DNA of 64,000 nt, from assembly GCA_043798985.1 (NCBI GenBank), contig JAZDOE010000002.1:22500-86499 (forward strand), written 5' to 3'. The stretch is from Candidatus Falkowbacteria bacterium. GTDB lineage: Bacteria > Patescibacteriota > Patescibacteriia > UBA11705 > JACRDX01. The notes under the pieces were generated by a model. The model made no database searches. It worked only from the letters and a program-made list of their open reading frames with translations, and was not told the DNA's origin. Below are positions 1,604 through 32,884 of the stretch, piece by piece. The translations under genes were made by a program, and so were the position numbers. Position 1 is the first letter of the stretch. Each line of letters starts with the position of its first letter.

Positions 1604-2029
1604 ATGAACAATAAACATCTCGCAAACGCTATGCCAACTATATTTTTACACAACTTCGTACAATCAATCAAAAACAGCCCGGCGCGAAAAAACAAAACAA
1701 TACTTGCGCTAAACATTTCAGCACTTATCTTCAATCTGGTCAGTTGGTTATTTTTATATTTCAAATTTAAACAAATTCTCGTGGACAAAAACAGTGACAT
1801 TGTGCCATTGCATTATAACATTTACCTTGGCATTGATCTTCAAGACAAATGGTGGAAAGCGTTTATCATGCCATTTTGGGGCGCGATTTTTTTCGTGTTC
1901 AATTATTTATTGACGCTTGCGATATTTCATAAAAAATCCCTAATCAGTTATTTTTTAAGCGCAACGAATTTATTTTTACAACTTATAATTTTGGCCGCGT
2001 GCATATTCACTTTACTTTTAAACATTTAA
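1604..2029 (+). CDS. hypothetical small membrane protein (about 4 predicted TM helices)
   Basis: ORF between divergent miaB and mraY, hydrophobic segments; no recognisable family. Confidence 0.4.
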   Translation: MNNKHLANAMPTIFLHNFVQSIKNSPARKNKTILALNISALIFNLVSWLFLYFKFKQILVDKNSDIVPLHYNIYLGIDLQDKWWKAFIMPFWGAIFFVFNYLLTLAIFHKKSLISYFLSATNLFLQLIILAACIFTLLLNI

Positions 2030-2036
2030 AATACCT

Positions 2037-3089: not shown

Positions 3090-3136
3090 AGCAGCTTGTA
3101 GCAAAGTAGCTTGTAGCAGGAATTTTAAAAATCCAA

Positions 3137-5552: not shown

Positions 5553-5578
5553 CCCCGCATCACGTGGAATACAGGGCA

Positions 5579-5986
5579 TTACCTTAAGTTCATATCTTTC
5601 AACTTCTTCCGCAGAAGTTGTTTTTCTTTTGCGCGCGCATCACGGCTGCGCAGACGTGACGTTTTGTGCCTCCTCTGCCAGCAGGTAATTACCACCAGCC
5701 TGTCCCGTATTTGACGATCCATCGCCACGATAAAGTCAAAGCATCCGCTCCTAAATCTCCATACGTTGTTTTGTTTATCTTGCGGGGTTCGACCAATGAT
5801 TTTTGCGGCACGCAATAATTTCTCTATCACTGCCGCAGGATTTTTTGGCAAAGTATTCACGTCTTTAATGAACTCCTGAATTGCGTGGGGTGTCACGAAT
5901 ATGGCAACATTGCCAAAAATATCTTGCCTGCGCTTTTTGGGCGGCGCTTGGCTACGCTCAAGCACCTCTTTTTCATGTTCATCCAT
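5579..5986 (-). CDS. RelE/ParE-family type II toxin (orphan; N-terminal extension of about 25 aa)
   Basis: C-terminal pattern VWRFRSGCFDFIVAMD...DRLVVITCWQRRHK resembles RelE/ParE fold signature; elevated GC; no antitoxin ORF upstream. Confidence 0.55.
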   Translation of the reverse strand: MDEHEKEVLERSQAPPKKRRQDIFGNVAIFVTPHAIQEFIKDVNTLPKNPAAVIEKLLRAAKIIGRTPQDKQNNVWRFRSGCFDFIVAMDRQIRDRLVVITCWQRRHKTSRLRSRDARAKEKQLLRKKLKDMNLR

Positions 5987-6120
5987 TGCAACCCTCCTAA
6001 AAAATCAAGAAAAGACCAACAATCCACCTTATTATAAGCGGAAATTGAATTTTAACAAACCATTTCAATTTGTCAATACTTGACTTATGCTTGTCAATAA
6101 AGTAGAATAAGGCATAGATA

Positions 6121-6232
6121 ATCAATAAATGACAAATATCAAATTTCAAATCAAATCCAAAGGTCAAATAACAAAAACATTTGACATTCAGATTTTGACA
6201 TTGAATTGACATTTGAAATTTGTAATTTGATA
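6121..6232 (+). repeat. AT-rich repeat element with three direct TTGACAT repeats (spacing 14 and 11 bp) and AAATGACAAATATCAAAT module; second copy at 62125-62217
   Basis: shared string TTTGACATTGAATTGACATTTGA at both loci. Confidence 0.6.
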
Positions 6233-6244
6233 TTTTCTATTAAT

Positions 6245-6529
6245 ATGGCCCATAAAAAAGCAGGCGGCAGTACAGTCCTTGGTAGAGATTCAAAAGCGCA
6301 ACGACTTGGAACAAAGCTCTATGGCGGGCAAATAGCAAAACCCGGCGATATTATTGTTCGCCAACGCGGCACAAAAATCAATCCGGGATTGAACGTAATG
6401 CGCGCGACAGACGACACTCTTTTCTCTACGGCAAACGGCATTGTCACTTTCACTGACAAGCGAAAAACCCGCTTTACCGGCAAAACTGAAAAAAGAAAAT
6501 TCGTGAGTGTCCTTCCATCAACAAAATAA
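6245..6529 (+). CDS. rpmA: 50S ribosomal protein L27
   Basis: [16 protein letters not shown]...IIVRQRGTK matches L27 signature; start moved to internal ATG. Confidence 0.9.
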
Positions 6530-6580: not shown

Positions 6581-8209
6581 TTACAATGACAGCGAAATGT
6601 CGTTGCCAAAATATGCGAGCTCCCCGTTCATTGTTGAGTACTGCACATGATATTGCCCCGCGGGAATATCACCAATCTCCACATGGTAATATTCATCCGC
6701 TGAAATTTCAACTTTTTGCGCGTTGGAAAAGTCATTGCCAACGCTATCCTGCTCAATATCAACCAGCGCAAAATCTGCCCTATACAAATAATACGCTGAC
6801 AACGCGATGCACTTGTTGCCGCACGATTTTGCAACAGCCGGCTTCCACTCGTAGCACACAAAATCTGTAAAAAACAGCTCGCCTTCACCGTTGAAATCAA
6901 TCACTCCGTTGTGATTCACAAACGAATGATCGCACTGAATCTGCGCCAACGTTGGATCAAATCCTGACCAATTTGGCGTCGCGCAATTGTAATCCACCCA
7001 CGGAAATCCGCGCTCGCATATCTGCTCCTTTGTCAGCGCGAATTTCAACGTTTCCAGCGCAGTCAATTCCCCGTTTGCGCCATACCACAACCATGCGTTC
7101 ATACCGCTTGGGCACACAATCTCGCATTTTACCCCACCATCGGCACGGTCAACATTATCAACCGCCTGCGCCAGCGTTATTTCATCAGCCTGCGACAACG
7201 ACTCAACATCTTCCTGCGTTTGCTTATCCGCCAACTTGTCCGCCGAAGCGTCAGCGAAGGCAGGATCAACCGTCGCATCCGGTTCAACACTGCCATACGC
7301 ATCATCGCCGACAACATCTGCTGGCTCATCCTGAAAAATTGACACATCAGGCGCGACAAACGGCTCTTCGTTTTCCTCGGGATCAATGCCTTGCGGCACT
7401 GCGCACATTGTCGCTGTTTCAAGCGAAATGGCTGTCCCGAATTTTACGAATGACGCGTAAAATTCATCATCATCTCCGCACGTATTCATCGGCGCGCTCG
7501 CATAGCCCATGGCCTGAAATACTTCGTAATTCAGGAATGGCCGCAAAACGCCATTGCCATCGGCAACAAAAATCACTCCCGCGCCAAAACCTTCAACGCT
7601 GAAAAGCGGTTTGACGAGCGCGCCGGCTCTCACAAACAACGGGTTGCTAAACTCACATTTGTGAAAATACTTTTGCTCTGCATCATAGCCTGACAAAACT
7701 TCTGCTTGCCCTGCCTCACATCCCCATGTTTTCAGCGCGAGCAGAGTTGGAATAGGATAGATCATACATCCGCTTTCTTCAGATTCTTTTTCAAGCATGT
7801 AAAAAGAATCATCGCCAAGCACTTGAAACAACTTCCGTTTTGGCTGCCAGTCAACGACCCAGCTTTCTTCGTAGCATGCCATTTCTTCTGGCGTAGCAGT
7901 GATCACCTGCTCCCATTTCCAGCCATGCGCATTGAAAACCGCCTCGTCCGCGATCCAATGCTTTTTCTCGCCATCAACAACATAGACATTTGCAGAAACA
8001 GAATCTTTCAACAAAGTTCCTGCCGGATGCCACGTGACGATTACGCTTGAACCATCGTCAATCCATTGCGCAACATCGCTGTTGTTTGCAGGCAAAAGCG
8101 CCTGCTCCTTTTCCGTGCCATACGGCTCATCCACCTGCATGCTACGAGTACAATTCAACACGCAGCACACAATAAACGCCCCAACAGTCACCAGCGCCAG
8201 CGTTTTCAT
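6581..8209 (-). CDS. secreted cysteine-rich acidic hypothetical protein (signal peptide), GC-elevated (about 55%)
   Basis: N-terminal signal peptide MKTLALVTVGAFIVCC, many Cys, acidic stretch; no recognisable domain. Confidence 0.6.
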   Translation of the reverse strand: MKTLALVTVGAFIVCCVLNCTRSMQVDEPYGTEKEQALLPANNSDVAQWIDDGSSVIVTWHPAGTLLKDSVSANVYVVDGEKKHWIADEAVFNAHGWKWEQVITATPEEMACYEESWVVDWQPKRKLFQVLGDDSFYMLEKESEESGCMIYPIPTLLALKTWGCEAGQAEVLSGYDAEQKYFHKCEFSNPLFVRAGALVKPLFSVEGFGAGVIFVADGNGVLRPFLNYEVFQAMGYASAPMNTCGDDDEFYASFVKFGTAISLETATMCAVPQGIDPEENEEPFVAPDVSIFQDEPADVVGDDAYGSVEPDATVDPAFADASADKLADKQTQEDVESLSQADEITLAQAVDNVDRADGGVKCEIVCPSGMNAWLWYGANGELTALETLKFALTKEQICERGFPWVDYNCATPNWSGFDPTLAQIQCDHSFVNHNGVIDFNGEGELFFTDFVCYEWKPAVAKSCGNKCIALSAYYLYRADFALVDIEQDSVGNDFSNAQKVEISADEYYHVEIGDIPAGQYHVQYSTMNGELAYFGNDISLSL

Positions 8210-8339
8210 GACAAACCTCCAACCAAGTTGTTAATGAACATTCCTTGTTTTTATCGTATCCAATTTGTGGCAACAACCCAATAAAAATGTTATGCACTTC
8301 TGACGCGTTAATAAAACTTTTAAAATTTAATCTATTTTT

Positions 8340-8860
8340 GCAACAAAAAACGCCCCAGCTTTGTTAGCCGAGGCTGACGGAAAAGAAAAAAGGAGCGTCA
8401 GGTGTAGACCGCTCCATTCATGTTCGCTCTTGAGACTACGACGGCCCAATCCTCCCACTTGGTTTTACGATGTTCATCTCCCACGCACCAGAGGCTCCAC
8501 AACGCTGTGACTTAATTCTCTGCGTTGTCATGTCTGGATTTACCATGTTTGATTACTTACCGATATTCCAAATTTCGGAACCGGGTAGAAGTGACACTCG
8601 TCCCATTGCTGGGACACCCTAAACGTATCGTACTCATCCCTTTCAGGACTTTCCGCTCCACTTAGGGTTCACTTCCTGCATGATCCGCCGGATAGGCTTT
8701 TTTGTTATCCGCGTTACGGGGCCATATCATCCCGCTCGCTTCGTTCTATTGGTCCATTCTTCCACCTCCCTTGTCAAAAAATGACAGAACTCTTGCCAGC
8801 TGATGAGTAGAGCAAAATGTCTCTCTTTCGAAGAGACTCGCCCAAGAGGCGGCTCACCCA
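8340..8860. ncRNA. ORF-free GC-elevated segment, candidate large structured RNA or decayed gene; identity unknown
   Basis: stops in all six frames over about 650 bp, multiple stable hairpins, GGAAAGUCC-like motif on minus strand but no complementary P4 strand. Confidence 0.2.
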
Positions 8861-8954
8861 TCAATAGATCCTACACAGAACATATACATTATAGCACGCC
8901 AACAAAAATATGTCAATAGCCCAAGCTAAATCACATAAAATCGCTCTAAATTTA

Positions 8955-8980
8955 CCACCACACCAGCAATGGTGTGGTGG
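8955..8980. terminator. perfect 11 bp stem hairpin with GCAA tetraloop (CCACCACACCA-GCAA-TGGTGTGGTGG), weak T-tract both sides
   Basis: seen directly. Confidence 0.3.
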
Positions 8981-9075
8981 TTTACGCGCACGCTTGACAT
9001 AAAAATCGAGATTTGCTAACGTAGAGACGTGATAGTATCGCGTCTCTACAACCAATCCAACCAAAGGAGGCGGCA

Positions 9076-9681
9076 ATGCGCAAATTCATGCTATTGTCCG
9101 CCCTGATCTTGGGCGGATGTTCATTTGTGGTGAATTGGGGCACAATAACAGATTCAAATGATGACGCGGCTGATTTTGCAGTCATTGCAGACATTGACGT
9201 TATTGAAGCCAATGATTTAATCAGCACGGACTGGGCAGTTGACACTGAAGAGTTAACAACTGAAGAAGTTGAATATACGGATGCGCAAAACTGCGCGGAA
9301 AACGAGTACTGGGAGCCGCACTTCAACAAATGCGCGTTTTACCCGTGTTGTGAAATCAAAGGCAATTGGACGTTTGTGTTCAATGACATGACGACTTTTC
9401 CGTGGAAACCAATCACCTACTCTGCCAAACTCACGCAGAACAAGGCGTATGTAAAGTTGGAAATCACCAGCGATGGTACCTTGCCATTGCCTGAAACCAT
9501 GAGCGGCACTTTGGAAAAAAGCGTCCTGCACTTGGACGGAGAAAATGACAGCGGCTTTTTGACACTTGATGCTGTGGATGTCAAAAAGCAACTTGAATCT
9601 GACAAAGTTGAAGGAGACTATGTCTGGCTCAAGGCTGACGGCGCGCAGATGGCAGGAACCTTCTACTTGCAACGTTTGTAA
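9076..9681 (+). CDS. hypothetical lipoprotein (lipobox LILGGC)
   Basis: signal peptide plus lipobox Cys; flanked by related palindromes ending CGTCTCTAC. Confidence 0.6.
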   Translation: MRKFMLLSALILGGCSFVVNWGTITDSNDDAADFAVIADIDVIEANDLISTDWAVDTEELTTEEVEYTDAQNCAENEYWEPHFNKCAFYPCCEIKGNWTFVFNDMTTFPWKPITYSAKLTQNKAYVKLEITSDGTLPLPETMSGTLEKSVLHLDGENDSGFLTLDAVDVKKQLESDKVEGDYVWLKADGAQMAGTFYLQRL

Positions 9682-9837
9682 AGACGAGATATATCTCGTC
9701 TCTACCTTAAACACCCACCCCCTGCCAAAACTTGGCAGGGGTATTTTTATTCAATTTACAACGAATAAAAAATATGAGACAATTAACATAAATCCGAAAC
9801 AATAGTTTAGGATTTCGCATTTCGGATTTATCTAATT

Positions 9838-11118
9838 ATGTCCAAACTCATAATCCAAGGCAATGCAAAATTAAGCGGAACATATTTGCCTCAAGGCAAT
9901 AAAAACGCTGCGCTCCCAATCATTAGCGCAACACTTTTAATTAAAGGCAAGGTTATTTTAAACAATGTCCCGGAGATTGAAGATGTTTTAACGTTAATAG
10001 AAATAATCAAAAAACTTGGCGTTAAAGTAGAAAAGCTTGGCGCTAATCGTTTTTCTTTTGATGCCAGCGAAGTGCCGAACAATATTCCAGATCCAGAACT
10101 TTCCAGAAAAATTCGCGGCATATTATTGCTAATCCCGGGCTTGATTTATCGCGCGGGCAAAACACAACTTTCGTTTTTTGGCGGTGATCCTATTGGCATC
10201 CGCCAAATAGATACGTTCGCGCAGGCAATCAAATCGCTCGGCGCAGACATTGAAAACAAAAACGATTCGCTGGTATTTCACGCTAAAAAAATCATTGGCA
10301 ATCAACTTTATCTGGACGAAGCCAGCGTTGTGGCGACTGAAAGCGCGATTATTTTGGCGAGCGTTGCCAATGGTATCACGGAAATTTTTAACGCGGCATG
10401 CGAACCGCACGTGGCTGACCTTTGCATTTTTTTGAACCAATGCGGCGCGAAAATCACTGGCATTGGCTCAAACCATCTCAAAATCCACGAGACAACAGAA
10501 CTGCGACCAGCCGAATATTCAATTTGCCCTGATCACATTGAAATCGGCAGCATCGCGGTTTTGGCAGCTGTGACTGGCAGTGAAATAACAATAAACAATG
10601 TAAATCCAACAACTTTTTATTGGATAAATCACGGCTTTGCCAAACTGGGCGTGAATTTAACATTTGAAAACAATCAACTGATAATCAAGAAAAAACAACC
10701 ACTAAAAGTCGCTGAAAGTTTGAACCGCCAGATACAAAAATTGGATGATGGTCCATGGCCGGCTTTTCCAACGGATTTGCTAAGTTTAATGATTGTTTTG
10801 GCAACACAAATAAAAGGCGAAGTTTTATTTTTTGAAAAAATGTTTGACAGCCGTTTGTTTTTCACTGACTCTTTGCGGAAAATGGGCGCGAAAATCACGC
10901 TATATGACCCGCACCGCGTCGTGGTCAATGGCCCAACAAAATTGCGCGGACAAAAATTAACATCCTACGATATCCGCGCGGGCATGGCATTGTTGGTTGC
11001 GTCACTGTGCGCCGATGGACAGAGTGAAATAGACAATGCTTATCAAATTTATCGCGGATACGAACGGATTGATGAACGTTTGAACGCGCTTGGGGCAAAT
11101 ATAAAAAAGCTTGATTAA
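9838..11118 (+). CDS. murA: UDP-N-acetylglucosamine 1-carboxyvinyltransferase
   Basis: N-terminus MSKLIIQGNAKLSGTY and overall EPSP-synthase-like fold pattern typical of MurA. Confidence 0.9.
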   Translation: MSKLIIQGNAKLSGTYLPQGNKNAALPIISATLLIKGKVILNNVPEIEDVLTLIEIIKKLGVKVEKLGANRFSFDASEVPNNIPDPELSRKIRGILLLIPGLIYRAGKTQLSFFGGDPIGIRQIDTFAQAIKSLGADIENKNDSLVFHAKKIIGNQLYLDEASVVATESAIILASVANGITEIFNAACEPHVADLCIFLNQCGAKITGIGSNHLKIHETTELRPAEYSICPDHIEIGSIAVLAAVTGSEITINNVNPTTFYWINHGFAKLGVNLTFENNQLIIKKKQPLKVAESLNRQIQKLDDGPWPAFPTDLLSLMIVLATQIKGEVLFFEKMFDSRLFFTDSLRKMGAKITLYDPHRVVVNGPTKLRGQKLTSYDIRAGMALLVASLCADGQSEIDNAYQIYRGYERIDERLNALGANIKKLD

Positions 11119-11266
11119 AAAATTCGAAATCCGAAATTCTAAACTCGAAACAAATTCCAAGTCCGACCACGCCTGCCGGCGGGCAGGAATCCGAATGTTT
11201 CAAACATTGAAAAATTCGTGCTTCGTGCTTGTTTAGGATTTCGTGCTTCGTATTTCGTATTTATAT
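11119..11266 (+). repeat. AT-rich palindromic intergenic repeat (modules AATCCGAAAT, AATGTTTCAAACATTG, TTCGTGCTTCGTGCTT) with embedded GC palindrome CCTGCCGGCGGGCAGG
   Basis: same modules recur at 28164-28208, 41516-41645, 51293-51425, 62815-63060, 9775-9837. Confidence 0.7.
11167..11187. repeat. GC-rich palindrome module GCCTGCC-GGCGG-GCAGG
   Basis: related copies at 17852-17875 and 62964-62984. Confidence 0.6.
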
Positions 11267-12754
11267 ATGAAAGATTTAAAAGTTCGGCAAGACAGAATAA
11301 AAAAATTGGAAGCGCTTATTGCCAGCGGCGTAATTCCTTACGCGGACCGCTTTGACCGCACTCACTCATTGGCGCAAATCTCGGATTTGCCAGCCAACGA
11401 AAAAGTCCGCGTCGCAGGCCGCTTAATGTTGATTCGCGACATGGGCAAATTAACATTCGCGCATTTGCAGGATTTTTCAGGTCGCAGGCAAATTGTTTTG
11501 CATGATACTGATTTGGGCAAAGAAAATTACAAAAACTTTTTGCAATTGATAAACGTCGGCGACTTCATCGGCGTTGACGGCGAAGTGTTTACCACGAAAA
11601 AAGGCGAGATTTCTATATTGACTACAAGCTACAAGCTACTCAGCAAATCTCTACGGCCATTGCCTGAAAAATGGCATGGTTTAAAAGATCAGGAGCTTTG
11701 CTATCGCCAAAGATATTTGGATTTGACAATGAATTCTGAAACAATGGAACGGTTCAAATTCCGTAGCGAATTTATCCGCGAACTGCGTGAATTTTATCAC
11801 CAAAACGGATTTGTGGAATTGGAAACTCCGATTTTGTGCAATGCCGCGTCAGGCGCTTTGGCAAAACCGTTTACCACGCGCCACAATGCTTTGGACTTGG
11901 ATGTTTATCTGCGAATCGCGCCGGAAATTTATTTGAAAGAAGCAATTGCCGGCGGTTTTGAAAAAGTTTTTGAAATCGGCCGCGTGTTTCGCAATGAAGG
12001 AATTGACCCGTCGCATTTGCAAGAATTCACAATGGTTGAGCATTATTGCGCGTACTGGGATTACAAAGACAACATGGCTTTTACCGAAAAAATGCTGACA
12101 ACCTTGATAAAAAAATTAAAAGGCACGCTAAAATTACCAATAATCAATCGCGACAATAAAGAAATTGAAATTGATTTTAACGCGCCATGGAAAGTTGTGT
12201 CATTCCGCGAACTTTTGAAAAAAGACTGCGGCATTGATATTGATAAATTTTCTGACGCGGAAAGTTTGCGCAAAGAAATCAAAAAGAAAAAGATAAACAT
12301 TAAAGACGCGGAAAAATTAGGACGCGGAAATTTAATTGACAGCCTTTACAAAGAAGTTTCGCGTGCGAGTATTATCAATCCAACATTTTTAATCAATCAT
12401 CCGATAGATCTTTCACCGCTCGCGCGCAAGAATGATGAAAATCCGGAAATCGTTGATCGGTTCCAATTGGTTGTGAATGGTTGGGAAATTATAAACGCGT
12501 ACAGCGAATTGATCGATCCGATTGATCAAGCGCAAAGATTTGAACAACAAATGACAGCGCGACAAGCTGGCGACGAAGAAGCAATGTTAAAAGACGACGA
12601 ATATATTGAGGCAATGGAATATGGAATGCCACCGATTTCCGGCTGGGGCATGGGAATGGAGCGGCTGCTCACGCTTTTGACAAAACAGCCAAATTTGAAA
12701 GATATTGTTCTCTTTCCGCTGATGAAACCGTTAGATGAGCAAAACGTATCCTAA
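11267..12754 (+). CDS. lysS: lysine--tRNA ligase (class II)
   Basis: OB-fold N-terminus plus class II core with conserved motifs; start set to first ATG (track ORF starts at GTG 11243). Confidence 0.9.
   Translation: MKDLKVRQDRIKKLEALIASGVIPYADRFDRTHSLAQISDLPANEKVRVAGRLMLIRDMGKLTFAHLQDFSGRRQIVLHDTDLGKENYKNFLQLINVGDFIGVDGEVFTTKKGEISILTTSYKLLSKSLRPLPEKWHGLKDQELCYRQRYLDLTMNSETMERFKFRSEFIRELREFYHQNGFVELETPILCNAASGALAKPFTTRHNALDLDVYLRIAPEIYLKEAIAGGFEKVFEIGRVFRNEGIDPSHLQEFTMVEHYCAYWDYKDNMAFTEKMLTTLIKKLKGTLKLPIINRDNKEIEIDFNAPWKVVSFRELLKKDCGIDIDKFSDAESLRKEIKKKKINIKDAEKLGRGNLIDSLYKEVSRASIINPTFLINHPIDLSPLARKNDENPEIVDRFQLVVNGWEIINAYSELIDPIDQAQRFEQQMTARQAGDEEAMLKDDEYIEAMEYGMPPISGWGMGMERLLTLLTKQPNLKDIVLFPLMKPLDEQNVS
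12412..12729 (+). repeat. direct repeat copy 1 (318 bp, lysS 3' end inside the intact gene); copy 2 at 15283-15600, about 94% identical
   Basis: base-by-base comparison of the two segments; differences mostly synonymous or conservative. Confidence 0.85.
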
Positions 12755-12873
12755 TTTAGTAAATTTTTACTTTGTTTGACAAAATTTACCTTTTGATATA
12801 TGTTGAAATGTTCGGTTTAAACCATTCCGCATCCGAACAACCGCCCCTTAACAACTAACAAGAGGTAAACAAA

Positions 12874-13815
12874 ATGGACGCTATCTGGAATCTGACGAGA
12901 GCCTGCCCTTGGGATTGCGAGATTTGTTGCGTTTCTGGTCTGCACGTCTGCACCACAACCAAGCACCTTGTCCAGTCTAATGCAAAAGAGAAAGGCGAAG
13001 AACTCACTTTAGCCGAAAAACTAACAGTGTTAAAAATGCTAGCCGACAAAGATTGCGAAATTGATTTTTCCGGTGGCGACCCATTATATTACGACGAGGA
13101 TTTCCGAGTGGTAGAGCAAGCAACTCGTTGGCTGCCATCTAGAAAAATTGGCGTTAGTATGACCGGCAGTAAAATCACTGACGCCAAACTGGAACTTTTG
13201 CAGAGAGTTGGTGTAACAGAATTCACATTAGATAATCTGCCGGAAACAGAAAATCCTTTCCGTCCTCGCGGCTATAATCCCGCGTCAATGGTTGCAATGA
13301 AGAAATGCATTGCCGCGGGAATAAAGACAAGAGCGGTTACCGTTCTCTACCCGGTGACAATGACCGAGAACAACCTTGCAAGCATATATCGCTGGCTATG
13401 CGAGAACGGCATCGCCGAATGGGAACTTCTGAGATTCTATCCGGTAGGCCGTGCAACCAAACTTGCAAAAATAGCCCCATCTAACCAGGAATATCTCAAG
13501 GCAATGCAATTTTTGCGGGGACTGCATGGATTTACAAGAATCTTTTTCCAGCACTCACTCAGAATGCTGGAAGGAACCGTGAAATGTCCTGCTGTGATAG
13601 ACTCAATCGGGATTCTCCCCGACGGGCAAGTAACGGCGTGCGCATGGGCGCTTGATGAATACTGCAAACATTTTAAGGGATTTCGCCTTGGCAAATTGCC
13701 GGAAGAAACGCTAGATCAAATTCTGGAAAGGGCAAGAAAAACCCCATGCTATGCCGACAGAACAAAATACTGCCGAACAATTGCCTATGTACAGAAAGAC
13801 AATGAAGGGCGGTGA
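12874..13815 (+). CDS. radical SAM protein with C-terminal SPASM/twitch-like Cys cluster
   Basis: CPWDCEIC (CxxxCxxC), GGDP SAM motif, C-terminal Cys cluster CPAV...CAWALDEYC...CYADRTKYC; own promoter TTGACA-17-TATGTT and RBS AAGAGG. Confidence 0.7.
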   Translation: MDAIWNLTRACPWDCEICCVSGLHVCTTTKHLVQSNAKEKGEELTLAEKLTVLKMLADKDCEIDFSGGDPLYYDEDFRVVEQATRWLPSRKIGVSMTGSKITDAKLELLQRVGVTEFTLDNLPETENPFRPRGYNPASMVAMKKCIAAGIKTRAVTVLYPVTMTENNLASIYRWLCENGIAEWELLRFYPVGRATKLAKIAPSNQEYLKAMQFLRGLHGFTRIFFQHSLRMLEGTVKCPAVIDSIGILPDGQVTACAWALDEYCKHFKGFRLGKLPEETLDQILERARKTPCYADRTKYCRTIAYVQKDNEGR

Positions 13816-13821
13816 AATACT

Positions 13822-14622
13822 ATGATAATCAATACGATACAATGCAAAACCGTCTTAACAAAAAGCAAACTACCAGAAGTAGCATATTGTATCAATCCGT
13901 ATGTTGGCTGTTTGCACGCGTGTGCATATTGTTACGCCCGCTTTATGCGCCGATTTACCGGCCACTTGGAGCCGTGGGGTTGTTTTCTTGATGTCAAACT
14001 AAATGCACCGGAAATCTTAGCAAAAGAATTGGCCAAAGAGCCAAAAAGAGGCGCGGTGCTTTTGGGCAGCGTCACGGATGCCTATCAACCAATTGAACAG
14101 AAATATCGTCTTACTAGAGCGATCCTGGAAATCTTGCTTCAGCACGATTTTCCGGTTTCTATTTTGACCAAGTCCGATCTTGTCGTCCGCGATATAGACC
14201 TCTTTAAACAATTCAATGAATGCGAAGTGGGTCTGACTCTGACGACAACGGACGCTGAAATTGCCAAAGACCTTGAGCCCGGGGCTGCTATTCCTCAAAA
14301 AAGAATAGCGGCGCTCGAAACTTTGCACAAAAACGGCATTAGCACGTACGCTTTCATCGGGCCAATTCTGCCAGGCCTTACCGATCTTGACGCCGTCTTT
14401 GGGAGCATTCGGGATAAGGTTAACTTTGTAATGGCAGAAAGCTTGAATACGAAATGTGGAAACTGGCAAAACATCCAAGCTGTTCTATCAAAAAGATACC
14501 CCCACCTCTTGCCGCTCTATCAGGTCGGTCTTGATAAAGCGTACTGGGATAGCATTGAAAATCAGGTAAAAGCCTTAAGCAAAAGATTCAACATTCCGCT
14601 GAAAGGCTTCTACCGGCACTAA
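13822..14622 (+). CDS. SplB-like radical SAM protein (COG1533 DNA repair photolyase family)
   Basis: motif NPYVGCLHACAYCYA typical of the spore-photoproduct-lyase-like family. Confidence 0.7.
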   Translation: MIINTIQCKTVLTKSKLPEVAYCINPYVGCLHACAYCYARFMRRFTGHLEPWGCFLDVKLNAPEILAKELAKEPKRGAVLLGSVTDAYQPIEQKYRLTRAILEILLQHDFPVSILTKSDLVVRDIDLFKQFNECEVGLTLTTTDAEIAKDLEPGAAIPQKRIAALETLHKNGISTYAFIGPILPGLTDLDAVFGSIRDKVNFVMAESLNTKCGNWQNIQAVLSKRYPHLLPLYQVGLDKAYWDSIENQVKALSKRFNIPLKGFYRH

Positions 14623-14642
14623 GAGTCGCGAAGTATACTTGC

Positions 14643-14677
14643 GCCGCTAACATCCAACGGGATAGCGGCTTTTTTCT
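14643..14677 (+). terminator. Rho-independent terminator (GCCGCTA...TAGCGGC plus T7)
   Basis: seen directly after the SplB-like gene. Confidence 0.55.
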
Positions 14678-14729
14678 TTACAATGTTGCCAATATTTTGT
14701 ATCCTTAAAACAAAACTAACTATATTATT

Positions 14730-15194
14730 ATGAACATGAAACAATTATGCAAATTTTTAATTAAAGCCAAGATAAACACATATGCGTCGCAGGGGGAAAA
14801 TGGAAAAATGATTTTGTCTGACGGAAGCAACGAGTTTAAATTTCAAGAAAAAACGTTTAGCTACCGAGACAGACATTTTGGATTCAATCCTTTTATTGGC
14901 GAAGAAATTGTTTGGCAAAGCAAAAAAGCAGCTTGGGGCATGAATTATTATGGGAAAATTATTGCAAAAATTATTCCCGCAAAAAATATTTACTCATTCC
15001 TTCAAGAAGCATTAAAGAAGCCGAATGCGGACAAGCCATTCCGCGGACCTGCTAATTTCAGAAATGGCGACCTTAGATATATTAACAAAATGCAAGGAAC
15101 AGTTAAAAACTTCACCGGGGCAGAAACAATTTTTTATAAAAAACAACAAATATACCAACTAATTTATCATGGCGGCTTGATAATAATAAAATAA
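14730..15194 (+). CDS. hypothetical protein (154 aa, AT-rich)
   Basis: clean ORF within the lysS-repeat-bounded islet; no recognisable family. Confidence 0.5.
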   Translation: MNMKQLCKFLIKAKINTYASQGENGKMILSDGSNEFKFQEKTFSYRDRHFGFNPFIGEEIVWQSKKAAWGMNYYGKIIAKIIPAKNIYSFLQEALKKPNADKPFRGPANFRNGDLRYINKMQGTVKNFTGAETIFYKKQQIYQLIYHGGLIIIK

Positions 15195-15283
15195 AAAAAC
15201 GACGAGAAACATTGTTCTCGCCAACATCCAAAAATCAACGCCCTCCCGCTAATCCTCCGACTTTCCGCGCAACCTGCGCTGCT

Positions 15284-15622
15284 TCACCGCTCGCGCGCAA
15301 GAATGATGAAAATCCGGAAATCGTTGTTCGGTTGCAATTGGTTGTGAATGGTTGGGAAATTATAAACGCGTACAGCGAATTGATCGATCCGATTGATCAA
15401 GCGCAAAGATTTGATCAACAAATGACTGCCCGCAAAGCCGGCGACGAAGAAGCGATGTTAAAAGATGACGAATATGTTGAGGCAATGGAATATGGAATGC
15501 CGCCGATTTCCGGCTGGGGCATGGGAATGGAGCGGCTACTCACGCTTTTGACAAAACAGCCGAATTTGAAAGATGTTGTGCTGTTCCCGCTGATGAAACC
15601 AACAGAACCGACAGATGAATAA
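15284..15622 (+). pseudogene. lysS 3' fragment (last about 110 codons, no 5' part), direct repeat copy 2
   Basis: protein-level match SPLARKNDENPEIV...LFPLMKP to LysS C-terminus; followed by terminator. Confidence 0.75.
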
Positions 15623-15634
15623 TATAAAAAAATC

Positions 15635-15675
15635 ACCCCTCACTAAGTTTTAGTGGGGGTTTTGTTTGCTTTTTT
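15635..15675. terminator. bidirectional hairpin plus T-tracts (likely native lysS terminator and terminator of the convergent minus-strand gene)
   Basis: ACCCCTCACTAA / TTAGTGGGGG stem followed by TTTGTTTGCTTTTTT. Confidence 0.45.
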
Positions 15676-16867
15676 AACCCGCGCCTGCGCAACGCAGGCG
15701 CTTTGCTTCCGCAAATACCAGCATCATCCATTCTGGCAGTTTCACGCCAAGCCGCAATCCCATTGGAGCCAATTTTTCCTTGACTTCTTTCAATGACTTG
15801 CGACCAAAGCCCCTTGTTTTCAGCAATTCAGCTTCTTCTTTAACAATCAAATCTCCAATGTACATGAGTCCTGCCTTTTTCAGGCAATTGGATGACCGCA
15901 CAGACAAACCCTCAAACGCAGAACGCGCATCGCGCAACATCAGCGTCAATGAAACCGAAACGCCATCAGGTGCAACGAATTTGTATTCGTCTAATGCTGT
16001 TTCGCCTTGCTTTTCCGCAACGGCTTTCAACCCTGCTTGCGTCTTCCAATCGGCAATCATGTCGCGCACTTCTTCATCGCTTCCGCGCAACAGCTTCTGG
16101 AATGTCTGTAGCGCACACTGCCGCAGCCTCTCCTTTGCCAAATATTCCAAACTGCGTACACGCGACTTGGTCATTTTCATCAACGTTGCTGCTTCGGCTT
16201 TCTTTACTTTGAGTCCTCTCAAGCCAAAGTGCAATTCCAACGCAGTTTTCCAATTTGGCAGTAGATGCTTTCGCAACAATGCGTCAATGAACTTTGCCGC
16301 GTCATCTGGCCACACAGACGACAATGTTAGCCGCGCCTTTTCGTCGCATAACTTTCGCACAATCAATTCCTGAAATTCCTGCTTTGACGCTGGCAAAGGC
16401 ACGCCCTGTTTGAACGTTGCCAAAACATCGTCAAATGAATCAGCTGACGCAGAGCTCTTGCCCAACACTGCAAAACACAGATCACGATATGGCTCGCACT
16501 CTGCTGAACAGAGCGGTTTGCTCAATGCGCGCATTGTTGCCTGCACTCCAGCGTAAAACTGCCGAAGCCCTTCAATGTCCAAGTAGCGGCCAAGAAGCAC
16601 AAACATCGCGGTCCGATGCTTTTTTATAATCAGCTCATGGGCATCGTGCGGCTCCATGTATCGTCGCAATGCCGCGCGATATTTTTCCTTTTGATCAACT
16701 GGTCCAAACAGCAATTGCCGCTTTTTCAGCCAAACAATATCATTTCTGACATTGTATTTGCTTGTTTTCAACAGTTCCGCGATTTCTTTTTCTCCCAAAC
16801 CAAGTAGCTTGAGCTCTTGAACAAAATCCAGCCGCTTTCGCCTTTCCGGTGTCGTTTTCAAAGACAT
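15674..16867 (-). CDS. hypothetical DNA-binding protein with C-terminal RNA polymerase alpha-subunit CTD-like domain; GC-rich
   Basis: C-terminus [21 protein letters not shown]...[19 protein letters not shown] matches the alphaCTD helix-hairpin-helix signature; start at ATG with SD GGAGG (track M15). Confidence 0.65.
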
Positions 16868-16968
16868 GGCATCCTCCTTCATCAAATTGCCAAAGATCAA
16901 AACTTTCAACTCCTTATCTTAATCTTTTCAATTTATTTTGTCAATAAACTCTTAAAATTACACGAAAT

Positions 16969-18011: not shown

Positions 18012-21000
18012 TCACGGCTTCACAATAATCTTTCCATTAAAATATGTCCAAGCTTTCGCAATAGAATCTTTACAATTCGCCGCTGAGTCATTCTTGACAG
18101 AGCCATAGCACCCTTTACCCGCGCCCTCACAACTTCCATTGCACCAATCCCAATTATCCAAAACCTGCACGCGCGGGAAATACACGCACGCGCCCTCTTC
18201 TCCAAAATCATGAATGTATGCCGGATCATAACACCCTTTCGCATAATCAGGATGAGCAACAACATAATCAGATGAAGCAGTCGTAGTTGTCGCTCCGTCA
18301 ACGCACGTTGGCAAAGTATCTATTTGCTTTTTCTTGCATTGATATAATCCAAAATAGCTAAAATATCCTTCCATGCACGCGCCAGAACTGTTTCCAAAAC
18401 TGCTTTCAACTACTTCGCACGCGGCCGCTGCTCCAGCCAGCTCGCAATCGCCCGCGTCCTTACACATCAATCCTTCGTAATCCTTACACTCTAACGTTCC
18501 GGCGCCAGCCTCATCACCGCACCATGGTTTGTGATTCTTATATCGCTGATTACTATTACCCGCGCCAATCACATCCGCGCCATTTCCAAAATCAACCATA
18601 ACCCTGCGCAAAGGCATGTGATCTCTGTCTGCCCACGCGTAAAACTCCAATTGCGCGGCCAGCACCTTATTCGCGCCCTTTTCCGGCACTGTGCCACTTA
18701 AGTATAAACCAACGTCAGTCTTAATGGCCAATGTATTCAAAATCGCTCGGTCAGTTCCATCTTCTGCTTTTATGTGCCCAGCCACCATCGGCGCAAATGT
18801 ATCAGTTCCTACCAAATCATCCGTTAAATTTGCGAATCCGACTGGTTCGTATGAAATATCCAAACCAAGCAAAGCATCGGTGATAGTCAAATTGCCTTGA
18901 ATTCCCGCACTATCCACAGTCTGCACAAATTGCTTTGCTCGTGGGGTATTATCTATTTTGACAGTATATTTATACGCCTGAAAAATATTCCTAAACAAAT
19001 TTCCCAATCTTAGTGTCACCGAATCTTTATTCAACAATCCTTTACCAACAAAACTAAAATCCGGCGCATCTTTTATTTTTATAGTATTTGCCGTCTCACC
19101 ACCTTTTACCACGCATTGATTCGCCGTTTTATCGCATTCAAACTGCTGACAATTAGAATCCGCATTGCACATCAAATTAAAATCCTTACACTCACCTAAT
19201 GAATACTCTTCCTCTAAAACTCCCGTTTGTGTGCAATAAGGAGTCAAAACCGAGCCACCCAAAGAATCATCAAACCAACTAGAGATAGTTTGGCTGGGAT
19301 AATATGGTTTACTATCAATCTCCTTTCCGTCTATATCCAGAATACTACCCTGCATTTTGTAACCCAAATCAACTTTTGCGGTATCTGCGTCAGCACAAAG
19401 AATAAAATGAAAACCCATGTTGCATTGATTTCCGGTATCATTTGGGGTTTTATTTTTCTTACACCCCAACGCAGGCTCAAACTCTATATACTCCGGATGA
19501 TCTAAGCTCTTTCCCTCTGGATACCCAATCTTTATCCATTGTTCCGGAGTCTCACAAAATATAAGCTTTGCGCCTTGAACCTGCACCTTATCACCTTGGT
19601 GCGCTCCACCGATCCGACACAGCACAATATTATCACATTGCCCGCCAAAAGGTTCTGCTTCTTCAAATATTGGTTTCTCACCTGGCATTCCATAATTTTC
19701 TGTTTTAGTATGTTTCCAATATTTGAATTCGTTATTAATAAACCCAAGATAGGAAACACTTTGTCCTCTCTCAGACTGCTGATAGTCTGAAATTGCTTTT
19801 GCTTGCTGTATAGTCGGACAAACTGATGTTATGTCACCTGCCAAGTCAGCGCATCCATCGCGCCATAACCAGTAAGCTTTGACGTCTGCTTCAATTAACG
19901 CGCCTGCGTCGTTTGTGGGGCACGCCTGACTTTTTATGTCTGTCCTATCACAAATCGGCTTTACGTCATTAAGATAACAATGGCTGTCCTCGGTACATGA
20001 ACTTGGTTTTGGCGCGATCGCTTCAAATTCAGCATAGCTCTTACCCCTACCCTCAGCGCCTTCTATGGCATCGCCCTCTTCGTCTGACACAGCAACACCA
20101 TAAAGCTGACCAGCACATTCCGCTGTCCCTGTAGCCGTATAAGAAGTTGGCAAGGTCAATGTATTGCCAGCCACGCAATAAGTTAATTCAATCAAATCCA
20201 TGACATCACTTTCTATTGTTGCTTTCTGCTTTGCATCCACCAACGCGTCAAGTTTCAGATTCATGCTTCCAAAATCTGATACCTGTGTTGCCTTATAAAA
20301 ACCAAATTGATCGCCGCCAATTACTACTGGCGCAACAATGTCTGTCAATTTCTTTTCGCTTTGAATCCTGTCTGTCCACGCCACCACCTGCGTCAATGGG
20401 TCATTGCCTTTGCCGCCCTCTGTCACTTGCGCCACTTCATAGCATCCCAAACCATAATCAAATTGGTTTACGTCCTCTAATTTCTTCATGACCTCGCTAA
20501 ACGGATAACCAGTATATTCAAATCCCGTTGACTGCACCGGATAACCCGGTCCTTCGCAATATCTATATGGAATGTATAAGGTGCTGAAAAACTTATCCGC
20601 GTCTGCTGTGCTGTCATTGTCAATCTGCACGCTCGACAAATCCCAAAGACTTGTCACACTGACTGGCGAATTATAATACATTCCCGGAAAACAAGTTTTG
20701 CCATTATGCTCTGCTATCTTATATGTCTCAAATTGTTCCCACATCTCGTCCGCATGTTCAGGATTTTCCAAGTCTTGAACCCGTTGTTGTGTAATATTCA
20801 ACTTTGACCCATACGGAACGCAGAACATTCCGCATTCAAATTTTGCTTCCTTATCCTGACCCTTTTTGCTTGATTTTTCATTCTGCTGTTCACATTTATA
20901 CTCCAACGAATCAGATTGCTTTGGGTCGGACGAATCCAATGTCGGTTCACCAGGTGGACCAAAAACAGGAAAATACCCGTTTGGACATTTCTCTTCATTA

Positions 21001-24000
21001 GGTGCTTTCACATACGCGTCAACACAACGCGTGCGCTCTGCTGTCGCTTCGTCTGGCTCACAATCATTACCCGCAAAATCTGTAAAATTATCTGGTATAT
21101 CTTTTTCTCCTTCTCCGTGTTTTTCTTCTCCCATCAATTGCCACAAACAATCTTCAAACTTTGGCTTAAATAATGCAATATCCTTGCACTCGTCTGTCCA
21201 GTCATCCTGCAAATGTGCCGCATAAGTCACTGACTCCTGTAATGCTCCAATCATCTTGAAATAGGTCTGTTGTCCACAAGCAGCCTCAACGTCTTTTACG
21301 ACTGGGCTGCACTCCTGCTTCGTTGCCATTGGATATTGAAACAACGCTGGCTCAATACAATAATAATTGCCAGAATCTGCTGGCGGAACATAGCCGGCAT
21401 CCGCAGAATAATTATTCAAATCCAATGTCCCTGACGGGACATCAACAGGATACCATGACAAACACGGATGCTGGTCTTTTTTGCCATAAACAATATTCGT
21501 AGAATCTTTTTCCAGACAATAACCATCCCAGCCCTTATAAACGCTTACAGTATCTTTGTCCTTCTTTAGACACTGCCCACAAGTTTCTGCTATGCCCGCA
21601 GTCGGTGGTTTTTCTGTAAGCTTATCAACATAAAAATACGGACCTTGTGGATCGCACATTTTTAAATTTTCAAGTCCTTTCATGCAGTTTTTCGTGCAAG
21701 TCATTGCTCTGCCATCATGATCATTTTCGCAAATCCATTCGGGCTTGCTTTCATTGCCCATCGCAAAATAAAGCTCGCGCGCCTTATTGCCATAAGTCAC
21801 TTTCTGATAGCCACACCCGCAATCAGCAGGATTAACGCAGATAAGAGCGCCGCCATAATCCTCTTTGTTTCCTTCACCTGATGATCCGCCCGTTAACTTC
21901 AAAACTGAACCCGGGAATGGTGAATTTTCCTCTGGATACGCGCGGCAACTCCCATAAGCCTTTGGTACTGGAGTATTCAATTTTGTGCCATCAACATTTT
22001 TCACACACACCTTATCTTTTTCAGCGCAAATAAAATCATTGGATGCAATATTATCATTATCAGCCGGGCACACCTTGCCAGCGCCGCACGATGGCCCGAC
22101 AAAAACCAATCCATAGCCATAGTTCTCTGCTCTTTCCGCGGCTTTCAACGTGTGCAAAGGATATTGTCCGGGCACAGTATAGCCCGCGTATTCTATTCCA
22201 TCAAAACCAGTATTGCGCTTTGTATATTGAGGGGGTGAAAATGCTGAAACATTTTTATAATCGTCTTCTGAAATGTACACCTCAATCTCTGAACAAGTTT
22301 CAGTTCCATCTGCCAGTTTTGTGCACAAACCCAAAACATCGCATTTCTTTTCATACTGATTCCTCTGCGAAATCCATTCCCAATGTCCGCCAACGCATGT
22401 GTACCATTCTTTGCACTGTCTTTCTCGTATAACTTTCAAAATCGTATTTGAATCATAGGCGTTTCTATATTGCAATGGCGCGCATAGCGTGTTATAAGCT
22501 CCAGTTGCATCTGGGGGCGTGGGTGTACATTTTGGTTCTTTCTGTATTTTCGACGTGCATAAGCATTCTTTTATTTCAAACGGATTAACAAATGTCGTCA
22601 AGCAATAACCGCTATTCGCTATAGTTTGCCCTTGCAAATCTGCTAAATCTTCAAGCATACATTGCTTGAATTCCGGGCACGCTGGCACTGGGCATTGGGT
22701 CAAAGCTGTGTCTATGTCTGCCTTGCCAACTGGCGCAATGACCGCGTAATTCTTTGCCGCGCTATTCAAATACGTTTGCGCTGACGCAAAACCAAGTTGA
22801 GGATTGCTTGTGTCATTAAACAGCACACAACCTTTAAGCTGGCTCACACCATTGCCGCAGGATTTTTTATCCAAAACTTCATCATTCAAATAATAATATG
22901 GCCGCCCAACAGGATTCTGCGACTTGTCACTCGGGTCAACGAATGCTGTGCATTTGTCATATTTATTTTGGCAAATACCGGCCCAGCCCGTAAAATCCGC
23001 GTCAGTGACACGCAACAAATTATTCACGCCATCTTGATAATATTGCTTGGCCTCGCATGAAATAGGCTTGCCCTTCACGTCTTTGTCGTATTTTGCAAAC
23101 CAACCAGTAACCGTGCTTACAGAACCATCGTCTGCTGTTTGCTCAACCTTTTTCCATTCGCAAACTTGCTCACCCGGGTCAAACAAGTACAGTGTTTTGT
23201 TGTCAGTTGTCGCAAAGCTTTCACACCCCAAACCGCTGTATTGGCACAAAGTTTCTACAAATTCGTCAGGATCAACTTTAAAATAAACTTCGTTCCAGCT
23301 TGTTTCCGGCGTCTGGTTGCCGCCATTAGTGTAACAAATGCCATCTGCTTCGCTCCAAATGCCATTAATCTTCGTGCATTTGGCTTTATCGGTAAGTGGC
23401 TTTAATTTGCCTTCTGAATTTAAACTCGGAGTTCCAAGCGCCGTGCAACCTTCGTTATCTTTTGAGCATTGCACGCTTTTGTCATTGACTAAATAAATCA
23501 ACTGGTCAGCTTTTATTGTTAAATAATTTCCTTCCCAACATTTATTGGTTTTCATATCCCAGACATCGCCGGCGAGTAAACAAAGCTCCTTGCTCGTCTT
23601 GCCAATGCCAGAACCTCCCGCGCACGGAAACGTCTGACAGTTACCCAAAACCCCAGCCGTACACCAATATAAGTTAGTCGCACTCGGAAGATCTTTTTTA
23701 AACGCATTAAAAATCAAAGGATTATTCTTGTCGCACAACGCTTGAAGGTTAGCTTGCGTGATTTCTTGCTGTTGCGGCGTTCCCTGCAAAAATTTTTCCG
23801 AGAACGGATTGTCAGAATTATGCTTGTCAATAAACGCCTCACAACCAACCGCGACAATCGGGCAAAGTTTTGTAAAACTCTTTAAGAAATGAGTGCCGCC
23901 AACGCGATCCTTGTATTCAGCACAGCCAATCATTGCCTGCGGCAAAATCTTATTGTCCAAAGTCTGATTGCAAATCGCTGGCACAGTGTTAATCGCTGTT

Positions 24001-31856: not shown

Positions 31857-31958
31857 TAAAATTCAATTACTCTCCACTATACAGAATAACCTATTTTGAT
31901 TAATACGTAAAATCCTCTTAGCGCGAGAAACTTGAGGGTTAGACAATAAAACAAAAAA

Positions 31959-32256: not shown

Positions 32257-32267
32257 ATTACATAGCG

Positions 32268-32882: not shown

Positions 32883-32884
32883 AT

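Follow-up and report, generated by a model that had tools for sequence, protein, structure and literature searches.

A radical SAM gene cassette at the duplicated 3' end of lysS in a Candidatus Falkowbacteria genome

The stretch of DNA considered here, called the window throughout, comprises 64,000 nucleotides (nt) of contig JAZDOE010000002.1 (positions 22,500 to 86,499, forward strand) from the Candidatus Falkowbacteria bacterium assembly GCA_043798985.1. Within it the lysyl-tRNA synthetase gene lysS is followed by an islet of 2,553 bases (12730-15282), after which the 3' end of lysS occurs a second time. The islet codes for two radical SAM enzymes, here named rSAM_A and rSAM_B, and for a DUF5680 protein; together with their promoter these genes form a cassette that recurs at unrelated sites in many Patescibacteria. 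The features of the locus are given below with the two flanking genes that anchor the comparison with L136, the locus of the nearest relative found.

The lysS repeat and the islet

9838..11118 (+): murA, the left synteny anchor, outside the insert (EPSP_synthase, E 2e-59; collinear with L136 1609-2911 at 84.6%)
11243..12754 (+): intact lysS, class II lysyl-tRNA synthetase of 503 amino acids (aa) (TIGR00499 552 bits with a cutoff of 428, NF001756 594 bits, both above cutoff)
12412..12729 (+): repeat copy 1, the final 106 conserved lysS codons, in frame (94.3% identical to 15283-15600)
12730..12754 (+): new C-terminal tail of lysS, LDEQNVS, and stop codon, read from inserted DNA (unlike the relatives' tails TESTNE, TTEDAEE and TTEDENN and the tail TEPTDE of copy 2)
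12776..12804 (+): cassette promoter, sigma-70-like TTGACA-17-TATGTT (promoter scan, 10 of 12 matches; -35 and -10 boxes kept in about 25 other loci)
12809..12839 (+): hairpin in the leader (5' untranslated region) of the cassette transcript (7-bp stem, -8.1 kcal/mol)
12874..13815 (+): rSAM_A, radical SAM protein of 313 aa with a C-terminal twitch/SPASM-like domain (Radical_SAM E 3e-10; SPASM 21.9 bits, cutoff 21.5)
13822..14622 (+): rSAM_B, COG1533/SplB-like radical SAM protein of 266 aa (TIGR04470 234 bits, cutoff 410; PA0069 family 177 bits; Rv2578c family 144 bits; all below cutoffs)
14643..14675 (+): terminator-like hairpin and U-run between rSAM_B and DUF5680 (RNA fold of 14615-14735; weak, with a z-score of -0.66, and missed by the consensus scan)
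14730..15194 (+): DUF5680 protein of 154 aa (PF18931, E 7e-36; conserved cassette DNA ends at 15194-15197)
15195..15282 (+): filler of 88 nt between cassette and copy 2 (no similarity to lysS, L136 or any other cassette locus)
15283..15600 (+): repeat copy 2, a 5'-truncated lysS fragment (alignment with copy 1)
15601..15622 (+): ancestral lysS tail TEPTDE and stop codon, now on the fragment (homologous to the L136 tail TESTNE and stop)
15637..15669 (+): ancestral lysS intrinsic terminator, now 3' of the cassette (10-bp stem and T-run; spacing from the stop codon as in the L136 empty site)
15674..16909 (-): rpoA-CTD-like gene, the right synteny anchor, outside the insert (RNA_pol_A_CTD, E 1e-18; a homologous 401-aa gene lies directly after L136 lysS)

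The two repeat copies, 12412-12729 and 15283-15600, align without gaps over 318 nt and differ at 18 positions by both alignment and direct counting, which bears out the direct repeat of about 94% identity reported in the original prediction, a note made from the sequence of this window. A repeat scan of the window recovers a single long family, 12412-12711 and 15283-15582, both members of which are lengthened to 318 nt by alignment, and given the BLAST match between them (E 1e-146) a chance origin is excluded. Twelve of the 18 differences are synonymous and six non-synonymous, in keeping with the earlier impression that most are synonymous or conservative. The first copy belongs to a gene for which an ATG at 11267 is a possible alternative start. 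The second is a 3' fragment only and keeps a hairpin/T-tract terminator at 15637-15659, as was originally read and as alignment and a terminator scan now show; the sequence upstream of 15283 is unrelated to lysS, and an intact second lysS paralog is ruled out, copy 2 being truncated at its 5' end. A degenerate leftward extension of this copy (15219-15282) was considered and found unconvincing, the identity falling abruptly at 15283. Copy 2 further carries D-to-V and F-to-L changes at the conserved 'DRF' residues of LysRS.

The DNA that the islet shares with other cassette loci is limited to about 12763-15197, from just 5' of the -35 box (its left limit falling at about 12763-12776) to the DUF5680 stop codon. 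Since the 100 nt upstream of the genes are made up of a conserved promoter and leader hairpin, the cassette is a self-contained transcription unit. The predicted succession of promoter, rSAM-SPASM protein, SplB-like radical SAM protein, terminator and 154-aa protein between the copies is recovered, with a borderline SPASM domain, a weak terminator and the 154-aa protein now assigned to DUF5680. The GC content, which had been thought higher in the islet than in its flanks, is 0.429 as against 0.420 for the window and 0.48-0.56 for the right flank, so that this claim falls; the rSAM genes lie at 0.45-0.47 and DUF5680 at 0.338. A search of 12600-15800 against Rfam gave no match. As lysS has lost its own terminator, its transcription may read into the cassette, and the old lysS terminator would end any transcript that extends as far as the end of DUF5680.

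The leader hairpin lies directly 3' of the -10 box and has a counterpart at the equivalent position in about 20 other loci, with stems of 6-11 bp. It was seen by folding sequences one by one, at the same position in most of 25 loci so treated; RNAalifold missed it, the MAFFT alignment having the stems out of register. These stems differ from locus to locus and keep their pairing (CAATCTCA/TGAGATTG, CAGTTCC/GGAACTG, GTTCGG/CCGAAC and others). The element may stabilise or regulate the RNA, or serve as a palindromic operator.

The empty site and the cassette in other Patescibacteria

The relatives of LysS belong to the Patescibacteria, and the nearest one found, recovered in L136 by protein search, is 91% identical at the aa level (P0121), with 87.6% nt identity between the lysS genes. 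The gene order in L136 is an open reading frame (ORF) of 200 aa, murA, lysS, a terminator and a minus-strand rpoA-CTD-like gene, without an islet. This locus is collinear with the window over 8275-12729, where the collinearity of lysS ends, and again over 15283-15967, and nothing in it matches 12730-15282. The islet is hence a lineage-specific insertion whose site is empty in the closest relative, and the relative with lysS followed directly by its terminator, which the original prediction had proposed to look for, exists.

The single lysS 3' end of L136 aligns to both repeat copies of the window, and it is what follows that tells them apart. After the conserved 'LFPLMKP', L136 reads TESTNE, copy 2 TEPTDE and the intact window gene LDEQNVS; at the DNA level, too, only copy 2 has a tail and downstream sequence that align with L136. 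Copy 2, although a fragment, therefore holds the ancestral lysS end together with its terminator and downstream synteny, and the working lysS ends in seven codons gained from the inserted DNA. This bears on the suggestion that the second copy came from a related genome: the synonymous bias on which it drew is upheld statistically (see below), whereas the notion of copy 2 as simply foreign is at odds with its ancestral tail, terminator and synteny, and polarisation suggests that both copies are mosaic. A scan of GTDB species with LysS returned only relatives of at most 72% identity, among which there was no cassette and no second lysS fragment.

The gene on the far side of the insert is of some interest in itself. 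In the window (15674-16909, minus strand) and in L136 (4442-5647) it codes for a protein of 401-411 aa with a C-terminal domain like that of the RNA polymerase alpha subunit (alpha-CTD), weak sigma-70 region-4-like matches and no alpha N-terminal domain. Such a stand-alone alpha-CTD protein after lysS is unusual and is conserved in L136.

Homologs of rSAM_A number 196 at E<=1e-5, are up to 84% identical, and come from sources named as several Patescibacteria lineages. Both rSAM_A and DUF5680 have a 100% identical counterpart among the NCBI proteins of a Candidatus Falkowbacteria metagenome-assembled genome. Among 80 metagenome loci, rSAM_B lies at most 200 nt downstream of rSAM_A in 71, and DUF5680 at most 250 nt downstream in 48, while the neighbours of the cassette are unrelated from locus to locus. 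Hence, the cassette recurs at unrelated sites in many Patescibacteria, as would be expected of a horizontally mobile accessory unit. We surveyed dereplicated loci that had 1 kb or more of sequence on each side for bracketing direct repeats of at least 50 nt, with same-size pseudo-cassettes placed elsewhere in the fetched loci as controls. Such repeats are present in 8 of 27 cassette loci and in 4 of 400 pseudo-cassettes (Fisher p=4e-8), all four of the latter being in one AT-rich endosymbiont locus. Duplication brackets are thus a property of the cassette and not special to lysS. They are imperfect (59-318 nt, 83-99% identity), and the targets and the end points of the cassette vary as well: the former include lysS, a recJ-like gene, SWIB-adjacent intergenic DNA and the flank of a tRNA-Ser gene, and the left limit ranges from -43 to -131 relative to rSAM_A. 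The bracketing repeats outside the window are the following.

L053: 134-140 nt, 91% identity, 3' end, with terminator, of the recJ-like gene next to the cassette on the minus strand
L054/L055: 84 nt, 95% identity, terminator, intergenic DNA and end of a SWIB gene
L059: 127 nt
L081: 68 nt
L082: 273 nt
L115: 62-70 nt
L123/L125: 102-113 nt
L126: 59 nt
L128: 97 nt, abutting tRNA-Ser

Two of these cases have features of their own. The repeat of L082 (2662-2933 and 4873-5134) spans a small ORF (MSKKEVNFFKRNGNLQNKDLLKQNPTKHLIF) together with its promoter and terminator, so that a small gene stands on both sides of the rSAM pair, and DUF5680 is missing there. L124 (6246-10305) and L125 (5800-9859), which come from different metagenomes, share a 100% identical cassette, along with 755 nt upstream and at least 1 kb downstream of it, and have unrelated left flanks; only L125 and L123, not L124, carry a repeat of the right flank, with 81-83% identity. 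The shared 755 nt encode a helix-turn-helix (HTH) protein that, by eye, resembles the N-terminus of IS30-type transposases ('ISRELKRN').

A different kind of border is seen in L056, L060-62, L068, L071 and L140, where terminal inverted repeats of 17-212 nt, homologous between loci, bound the cassette; the L053 cassette has one of 31 nt (7870-7897 / 10343-10372). There are none between the flanks in the window, unlike what a transposon with terminal inverted repeats would show. In several of the loci with inverted repeats a gene for a large serine recombinase, overlapping a tRNA-Ser gene, lies beside the cassette.

L068: terminal inverted repeat 6692-6900 / 9333-9530; serine recombinase 4801-6447 (-)
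L061: terminal inverted repeat 114-301 / 2750-2935; serine recombinase 3230-4684
L056: terminal inverted repeat 1-188 / 2604-2802; serine recombinase
L140: terminal inverted repeat at the ends
L091: serine recombinase
L122/L124: serine recombinase 1935-3536

These inverted repeats comprise two GC-rich hairpins, and several loci share the inner end TTCAAAGATGGAAT or TTCAAAAATGAAAAAT. Perfect inverted repeats form the ends of short contigs and account for the break that many assemblies show 100-300 nt upstream of rSAM_A. The cassette is oriented oppositely in L061 and L068 relative to the serine recombinase, and L068 has, at 6597-6695, a second and inverted copy of 33 aa from the C-terminus of the recombinase; these two observations suggest an invertible or excisable unit.

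Origin of the two lysS copies

Were copy 2 a duplicate decaying in place, about 40% of the differences would be expected to be synonymous; 12 of 18 are (p=0.02), and so are 5 of the 7 changes derived in copy 2 (p=0.01-0.04). With L136 as the one outgroup, 14 of the 18 sites can be polarised, and the derived changes prove to be spatially sorted: 6 of the 7 of copy 2 lie 5' of about 12590 and 6 of the 7 of copy 1 lie 3' of it (Fisher p=0.029). This pattern suggests the reciprocal mosaic that one crossover inside the homology would leave behind. The two non-synonymous 'DRF' changes of copy 2 look like later decay. Further, all seven coding differences between the L053 repeat copies are synonymous. 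Taken together, the synonymous bias, L053 and the L124/L125 pair speak for a divergence of the copies in separate lineages, as functional genes.

We accordingly regard as probable, its functional part (next section) included, the reading in which a mobile cassette entered the end of lysS through recombinase-free homologous insertion-duplication with DNA from a related strain. The donor would have been a strain that already carried the same arrangement of lysS end and cassette, and RecA-type homologous recombination, a host function, would have been all that was needed. By one route, recombination of repeat with repeat would have excised a circle of 2,871 bp, made up of the cassette and one repeat copy, which then integrated in the manner described by Campbell through one crossover inside the 318-bp homology; by the other, a linear repeat-cassette-repeat fragment would have been taken up through natural transformation. 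Either would yield an intact lysS composed of the recipient 5' part, the donor 3' part and the new tail, followed by the cassette and a mosaic fragment, copy 2, with a donor 5' part, a resident 3' part and the tail and terminator native to the gene. Where the target gene is essential, a homologous stretch would be tolerated only if it extends to the 3' end and so leaves the gene intact, which would explain why the duplicated segments tend to be gene 3' ends. Patescibacteria have been reported to carry comEC, pilus (competence) and homologous-recombination genes (PMC12455944), and transformation can create duplications via alternative pairing of repeats (PMC3784515).

Several points weigh against this reading. 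The polarisation draws on one outgroup and the whole analysis on 18 informative sites, so that each of the two tests, mosaic and synonymous, is weak by itself (p about 0.02-0.03). A donor of 94% identity should not, under a clock, carry almost all of the derived changes. Among the 94 cassette loci there is no circular form, in the shape of terminal direct overlaps or a circularly permuted contig, and no donor with the LDEQNVS tail, and the collections searched hold no closer relatives. The model presupposes an earlier junction of lysS end and cassette, and the founding event, with its new tail and 88-nt filler, lies outside what it explains. Enzyme-mediated movement exists in the family, as the inverted repeats and serine recombinases attest, and could have acted here in trans. 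Finally, the functional part draws on distant family resemblance only.

Movement by an enzyme leads to the alternative of site-specific integration, in which a tyrosine or serine recombinase, encoded elsewhere or since lost, would have acted on an attP site containing the lysS 3' end, the 318-bp repeats being attL and attR. An intact gene, an island and a displaced 3' fragment are the textbook outcome of such an event, the same reciprocal mosaic would be expected, and relatives of the cassette do adjoin large serine recombinases and tRNA-Ser genes (L068, L091, L061, L056, L122/L124). On the other hand, no integrase, recombinase or transposase came out of Pfam scans that covered the ORFs of the islet and, for the window, those of at least 150 aa judged to be likely genes (nested and overlapping ones left out), and tblastn of the 64-kb window with the L068 large serine recombinase found no match; the original remark that no integrase is present thus holds for islet and window alike. 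Nor is there a tRNA gene in the window, or an integrase among the called genes adjoining the repeat-bracketed relatives examined (L053, L054), and rSAM_A, used as a cassette marker, has no match in IMG/VR, the INPHARED phage records or the PLSDB plasmids. From locus to locus there is variation in the length of the repeat, in its target and in where the cassette DNA begins and ends, which a fixed att site would not show, and for this reason the homology-driven form is favoured over the site-specific one. Serine recombinases are not known to need or produce long identical att segments. We consider a site-specific origin unlikely. Insertion into a gene 3' end, with incoming DNA restoring the gene, had been put forward originally with both mechanisms in mind; the empty site supports such an insertion, and the varying repeats and end points favour its homology-driven form.

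An in-place duplication is likewise improbable. Here 318 bp of the recipient's own lysS would have been duplicated as the cassette went in, whether by an illegitimate event or in the course of replication, through long staggered breaks, template switching or homology-facilitated illegitimate recombination (HFIR) of the one-sided kind, and identical copies would then have diverged. Such an event needs no donor with the same arrangement and would account for the variable repeat lengths and the 88-nt filler, and the D-to-V and F-to-L changes at conserved residues of copy 2 resemble pseudogene decay. HFIR itself is documented in competent bacteria (PMC3240628). Against it stand the synonymous excess, both among all differences and among the copy-2-specific changes, the spatial separation of the derived changes between the copies, the wholly synonymous differences of L053, and repeats that are only 81-83% alike around a cassette 100% identical in L124 and L125.

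An assembly artefact, with the contig a chimera of two strains and the repeat, cassette and repeat not on one molecule, is very improbable: the source is a metagenome-assembled genome and many related contigs break at the cassette borders, but these breaks are explained by perfect inverted repeats, copies with 18 differences need not be collapsed by the assembler, reads that join the 88-nt filler to lysS at 15283 would have to exist even for a chimera, and the same architecture occurs in at least eight independent assemblies from different projects.

Function, significance and comparison with known systems

rSAM_A has a CX3CX2C motif and three further conserved cysteines (C238, C256, C300), and its radical SAM core begins at residue 5-11. 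Its predicted structure (pLDDT score 94) is closest among solved folds to SkfB, SuiB and anSME, with viperin and MoaA almost equally close; a PDB sequence search finds only SkfB (E 1.5e-4), the best NCBIfam match is TIGR04053 (55 bits), and there is no TIGR04469 match at E<=0.01. The SPASM assignment offered originally is borderline (21.9 bits, cutoff 21.5), with three conserved C-terminal cysteines only, as in twitch domains, versus the 7-Cys motif of a SPASM domain with two auxiliary clusters. The SplB-like, COG1533-type label for rSAM_B stands, with all family scores below cutoffs: it aligns with TIGR04470 end to end (residues 3-260 to 1-256 of 285), and besides this model only PA0069 and Rv2578c are matched, the spore photoproduct lyase model and PDB sequences giving none. 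Among phage families it matches phrog_13321 (E 1e-56), which is uncharacterised, and phrog_9252, 'DNA repair photolyase' (E 1.5e-12). DUF5680 is modelled as an alpha/beta protein, with no fold match and a best E of 0.5 in the PDB sequence search; its family has 2,010 representatives at E<=1e-3 (50%-identity clusters), which are mostly stand-alone. Some NCBI names would make DUF5680 a sensor domain of XRE regulators, a role we rejected since the proteins concerned are plain 155-aa DUF5680 and the longer members have SH3, DUF1349 or unassigned extensions, with no HTH. Of the PADLOC defence models only pVip is matched, weakly and by rSAM_A (23 bits, E 9e-6), a match that the general likeness among radical SAM proteins explains; rSAM_B and DUF5680 match none. 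A literature search for 'radical SAM mobile pair', DUF5680, TIGR04469 and TIGR04470 brought up nothing relevant.

From these resemblances we suggest, with low confidence, that the substrate of the module is most likely a nucleotide or nucleic acid and its role one in modification, repair or something defence-like, rather than in the making of a ribosomally synthesised and post-translationally modified peptide (RiPP). For rSAM_A to be a SPASM maturase of a peptide, or of DUF5680 itself, seems improbable to us. That its closest solved folds include the RiPP maturases SkfB and SuiB speaks for this, as does the small size of DUF5680 and its strict linkage to the cassette. Yet the near-equal closeness of viperin and MoaA, the place of rSAM_B in the DNA-repair-lyase-like COG1533 group and the count of only three conserved C-terminal cysteines tell against it, and a core starting at residue 5-11 leaves no room for an N-terminal peptide-recognition (RRE) domain. 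The search for a precursor peptide that the original prediction had suggested was run on the islet and revealed no conserved small ORF: the only intergenic candidate, 12772-12858, overlaps the promoter and leader and has non-triplet indels in the alignment of the relatives.

Elsewhere in the window lies a second accessory-looking cluster, 30532-36749 on the minus strand, which could be a prophage remnant or a nucleotide-modification/defence module.

30532-31038 (-): CYTH / class IV adenylate-cyclase-like protein
31035-31856 (-): second COG1533-like radical SAM protein (PA0069 and Rv2578c matches; phrog_13321, E 5e-12)
32885-33730 (-): Bro-N protein (phrog_15286, E 8e-89)
within the cluster (-): unassigned 200-aa ORF
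35070-35912 (-): Nmad3 'nucleotide modification associated' protein (E 9e-72)
36045-36749 (-): NYN nuclease

The window also encodes (40823-46099, minus strand) an anaerobic ribonucleotide reductase NrdD of 1407 aa, with an intein that contains a LAGLIDADG homing endonuclease (residues ~247-571), adjoined by the NrdG activase (40823-41515, minus strand). Also on the minus strand, 18012-28163 and 51426-58046 specify giant proteins, of 3383 and 2206 aa respectively, and 58101-59942 specifies one of 613 aa; the 2206-aa and 613-aa proteins have N-terminal T4SS_pilin-like segments together with Big_5 and TIG domains, and these two are probably surface- or pilus-associated, as is typical of Patescibacteria.

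How Patescibacteria gain genes is poorly understood, as their genomes are tiny, mobile elements that can be recognised in them are few, and a genetic system is lacking. The present case offers a concrete and repeatedly observed route, by which a promoter-bearing operon comes to lie beside or inside housekeeping genes with a local duplication of 59-318 bp in which donor and recipient alleles can be seen. It also brings to light a widespread three-gene radical SAM module without assigned chemistry, whose strict linkage and mobility make it a good candidate for biochemistry. One may go further, tentatively and with considerable doubt, and see in rSAM_A, rSAM_B and DUF5680 an undescribed mobile system of the Patescibacteria with new biochemistry, such as the modification of nucleotides or nucleic acids in defence or repair, and recombinase-free spread, in which captured host gene ends serve as homology arms. 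If true, this would be a recombination-driven 'homing' of an operon by duplication, with the same unit travelling elsewhere with inverted repeats beside serine recombinases.

The closest named counterpart of the gene pair is the 'radical SAM mobile pair' A/B (TIGR04469/TIGR04470), which we take to be an uncharacterised, sporadically distributed two-gene pair. Both have two adjacent radical SAM genes in a patchy, mobile distribution, and rSAM_B aligns with TIGR04470; the cassette differs in that rSAM_B falls below the cutoff, rSAM_A is SPASM/twitch-like without TIGR04469, and DUF5680 is present as a third gene. With the spore photoproduct lyase/COG1533 group, rSAM_B shares the family core (PA0069, Rv2578c, phrog_9252), whereas its scores lie below cutoffs and the lyase model itself is not matched; the substrates of PA0069 and Rv2578c are themselves uncharacterised.

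As to architecture, the arrival of a new 3' end in polymorphic toxin loci (rhs, cdiA) leaves the displaced old one downstream. The persistence of a displaced, 5'-truncated gene end with homology 3' of acquired DNA is common to these orphan modules and the lysS locus, but the gene affected here is a housekeeping synthetase, and what was acquired is an unrelated operon rather than an alternative end with an immunity gene. The islands that tyrosine integrases insert at the 3' ends of tRNA and protein genes share with it the intact target, the foreign DNA, the displaced 3' fragment, the restored gene end and the empty site in a relative; they differ in that neither the islet nor the rest of the window yielded an integrase, the repeat here is a long one with mismatches, targets and lengths vary, and the cassette ends are not fixed. 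In Campbell-type insertion-duplication, as used in insertion-duplication mutagenesis, and the merodiploidy produced by transformation (Johnston et al. 2013, PMC3784515), as here, chromosomal homology is duplicated on both sides; host recombination suffices there, as it would here, and the copies are mosaic, as the polarised sites suggest for lysS. The duplications there span 100-900 kb as against 59-318 bp, and ours is a natural and recurrent case, with a specific 2.4-kb cassette as its cargo, in uncultivated Patescibacteria, for which a circle or transformation would be deduced from sequence alone. HFIR (PMC3240628) likewise places foreign DNA beside homology without a mobile-element enzyme, and the filler and variable end points would fit it, but it usually deletes or replaces recipient DNA without duplicating the anchor, and from it one would not expect the 5' half of copy 2 to carry foreign alleles. 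The architecture of the insertion is thus itself of a known kind, in a recombinase-free variant, and what is noteworthy, and moderately surprising, is the recurrent, duplication-bracketed spread of one radical SAM operon.

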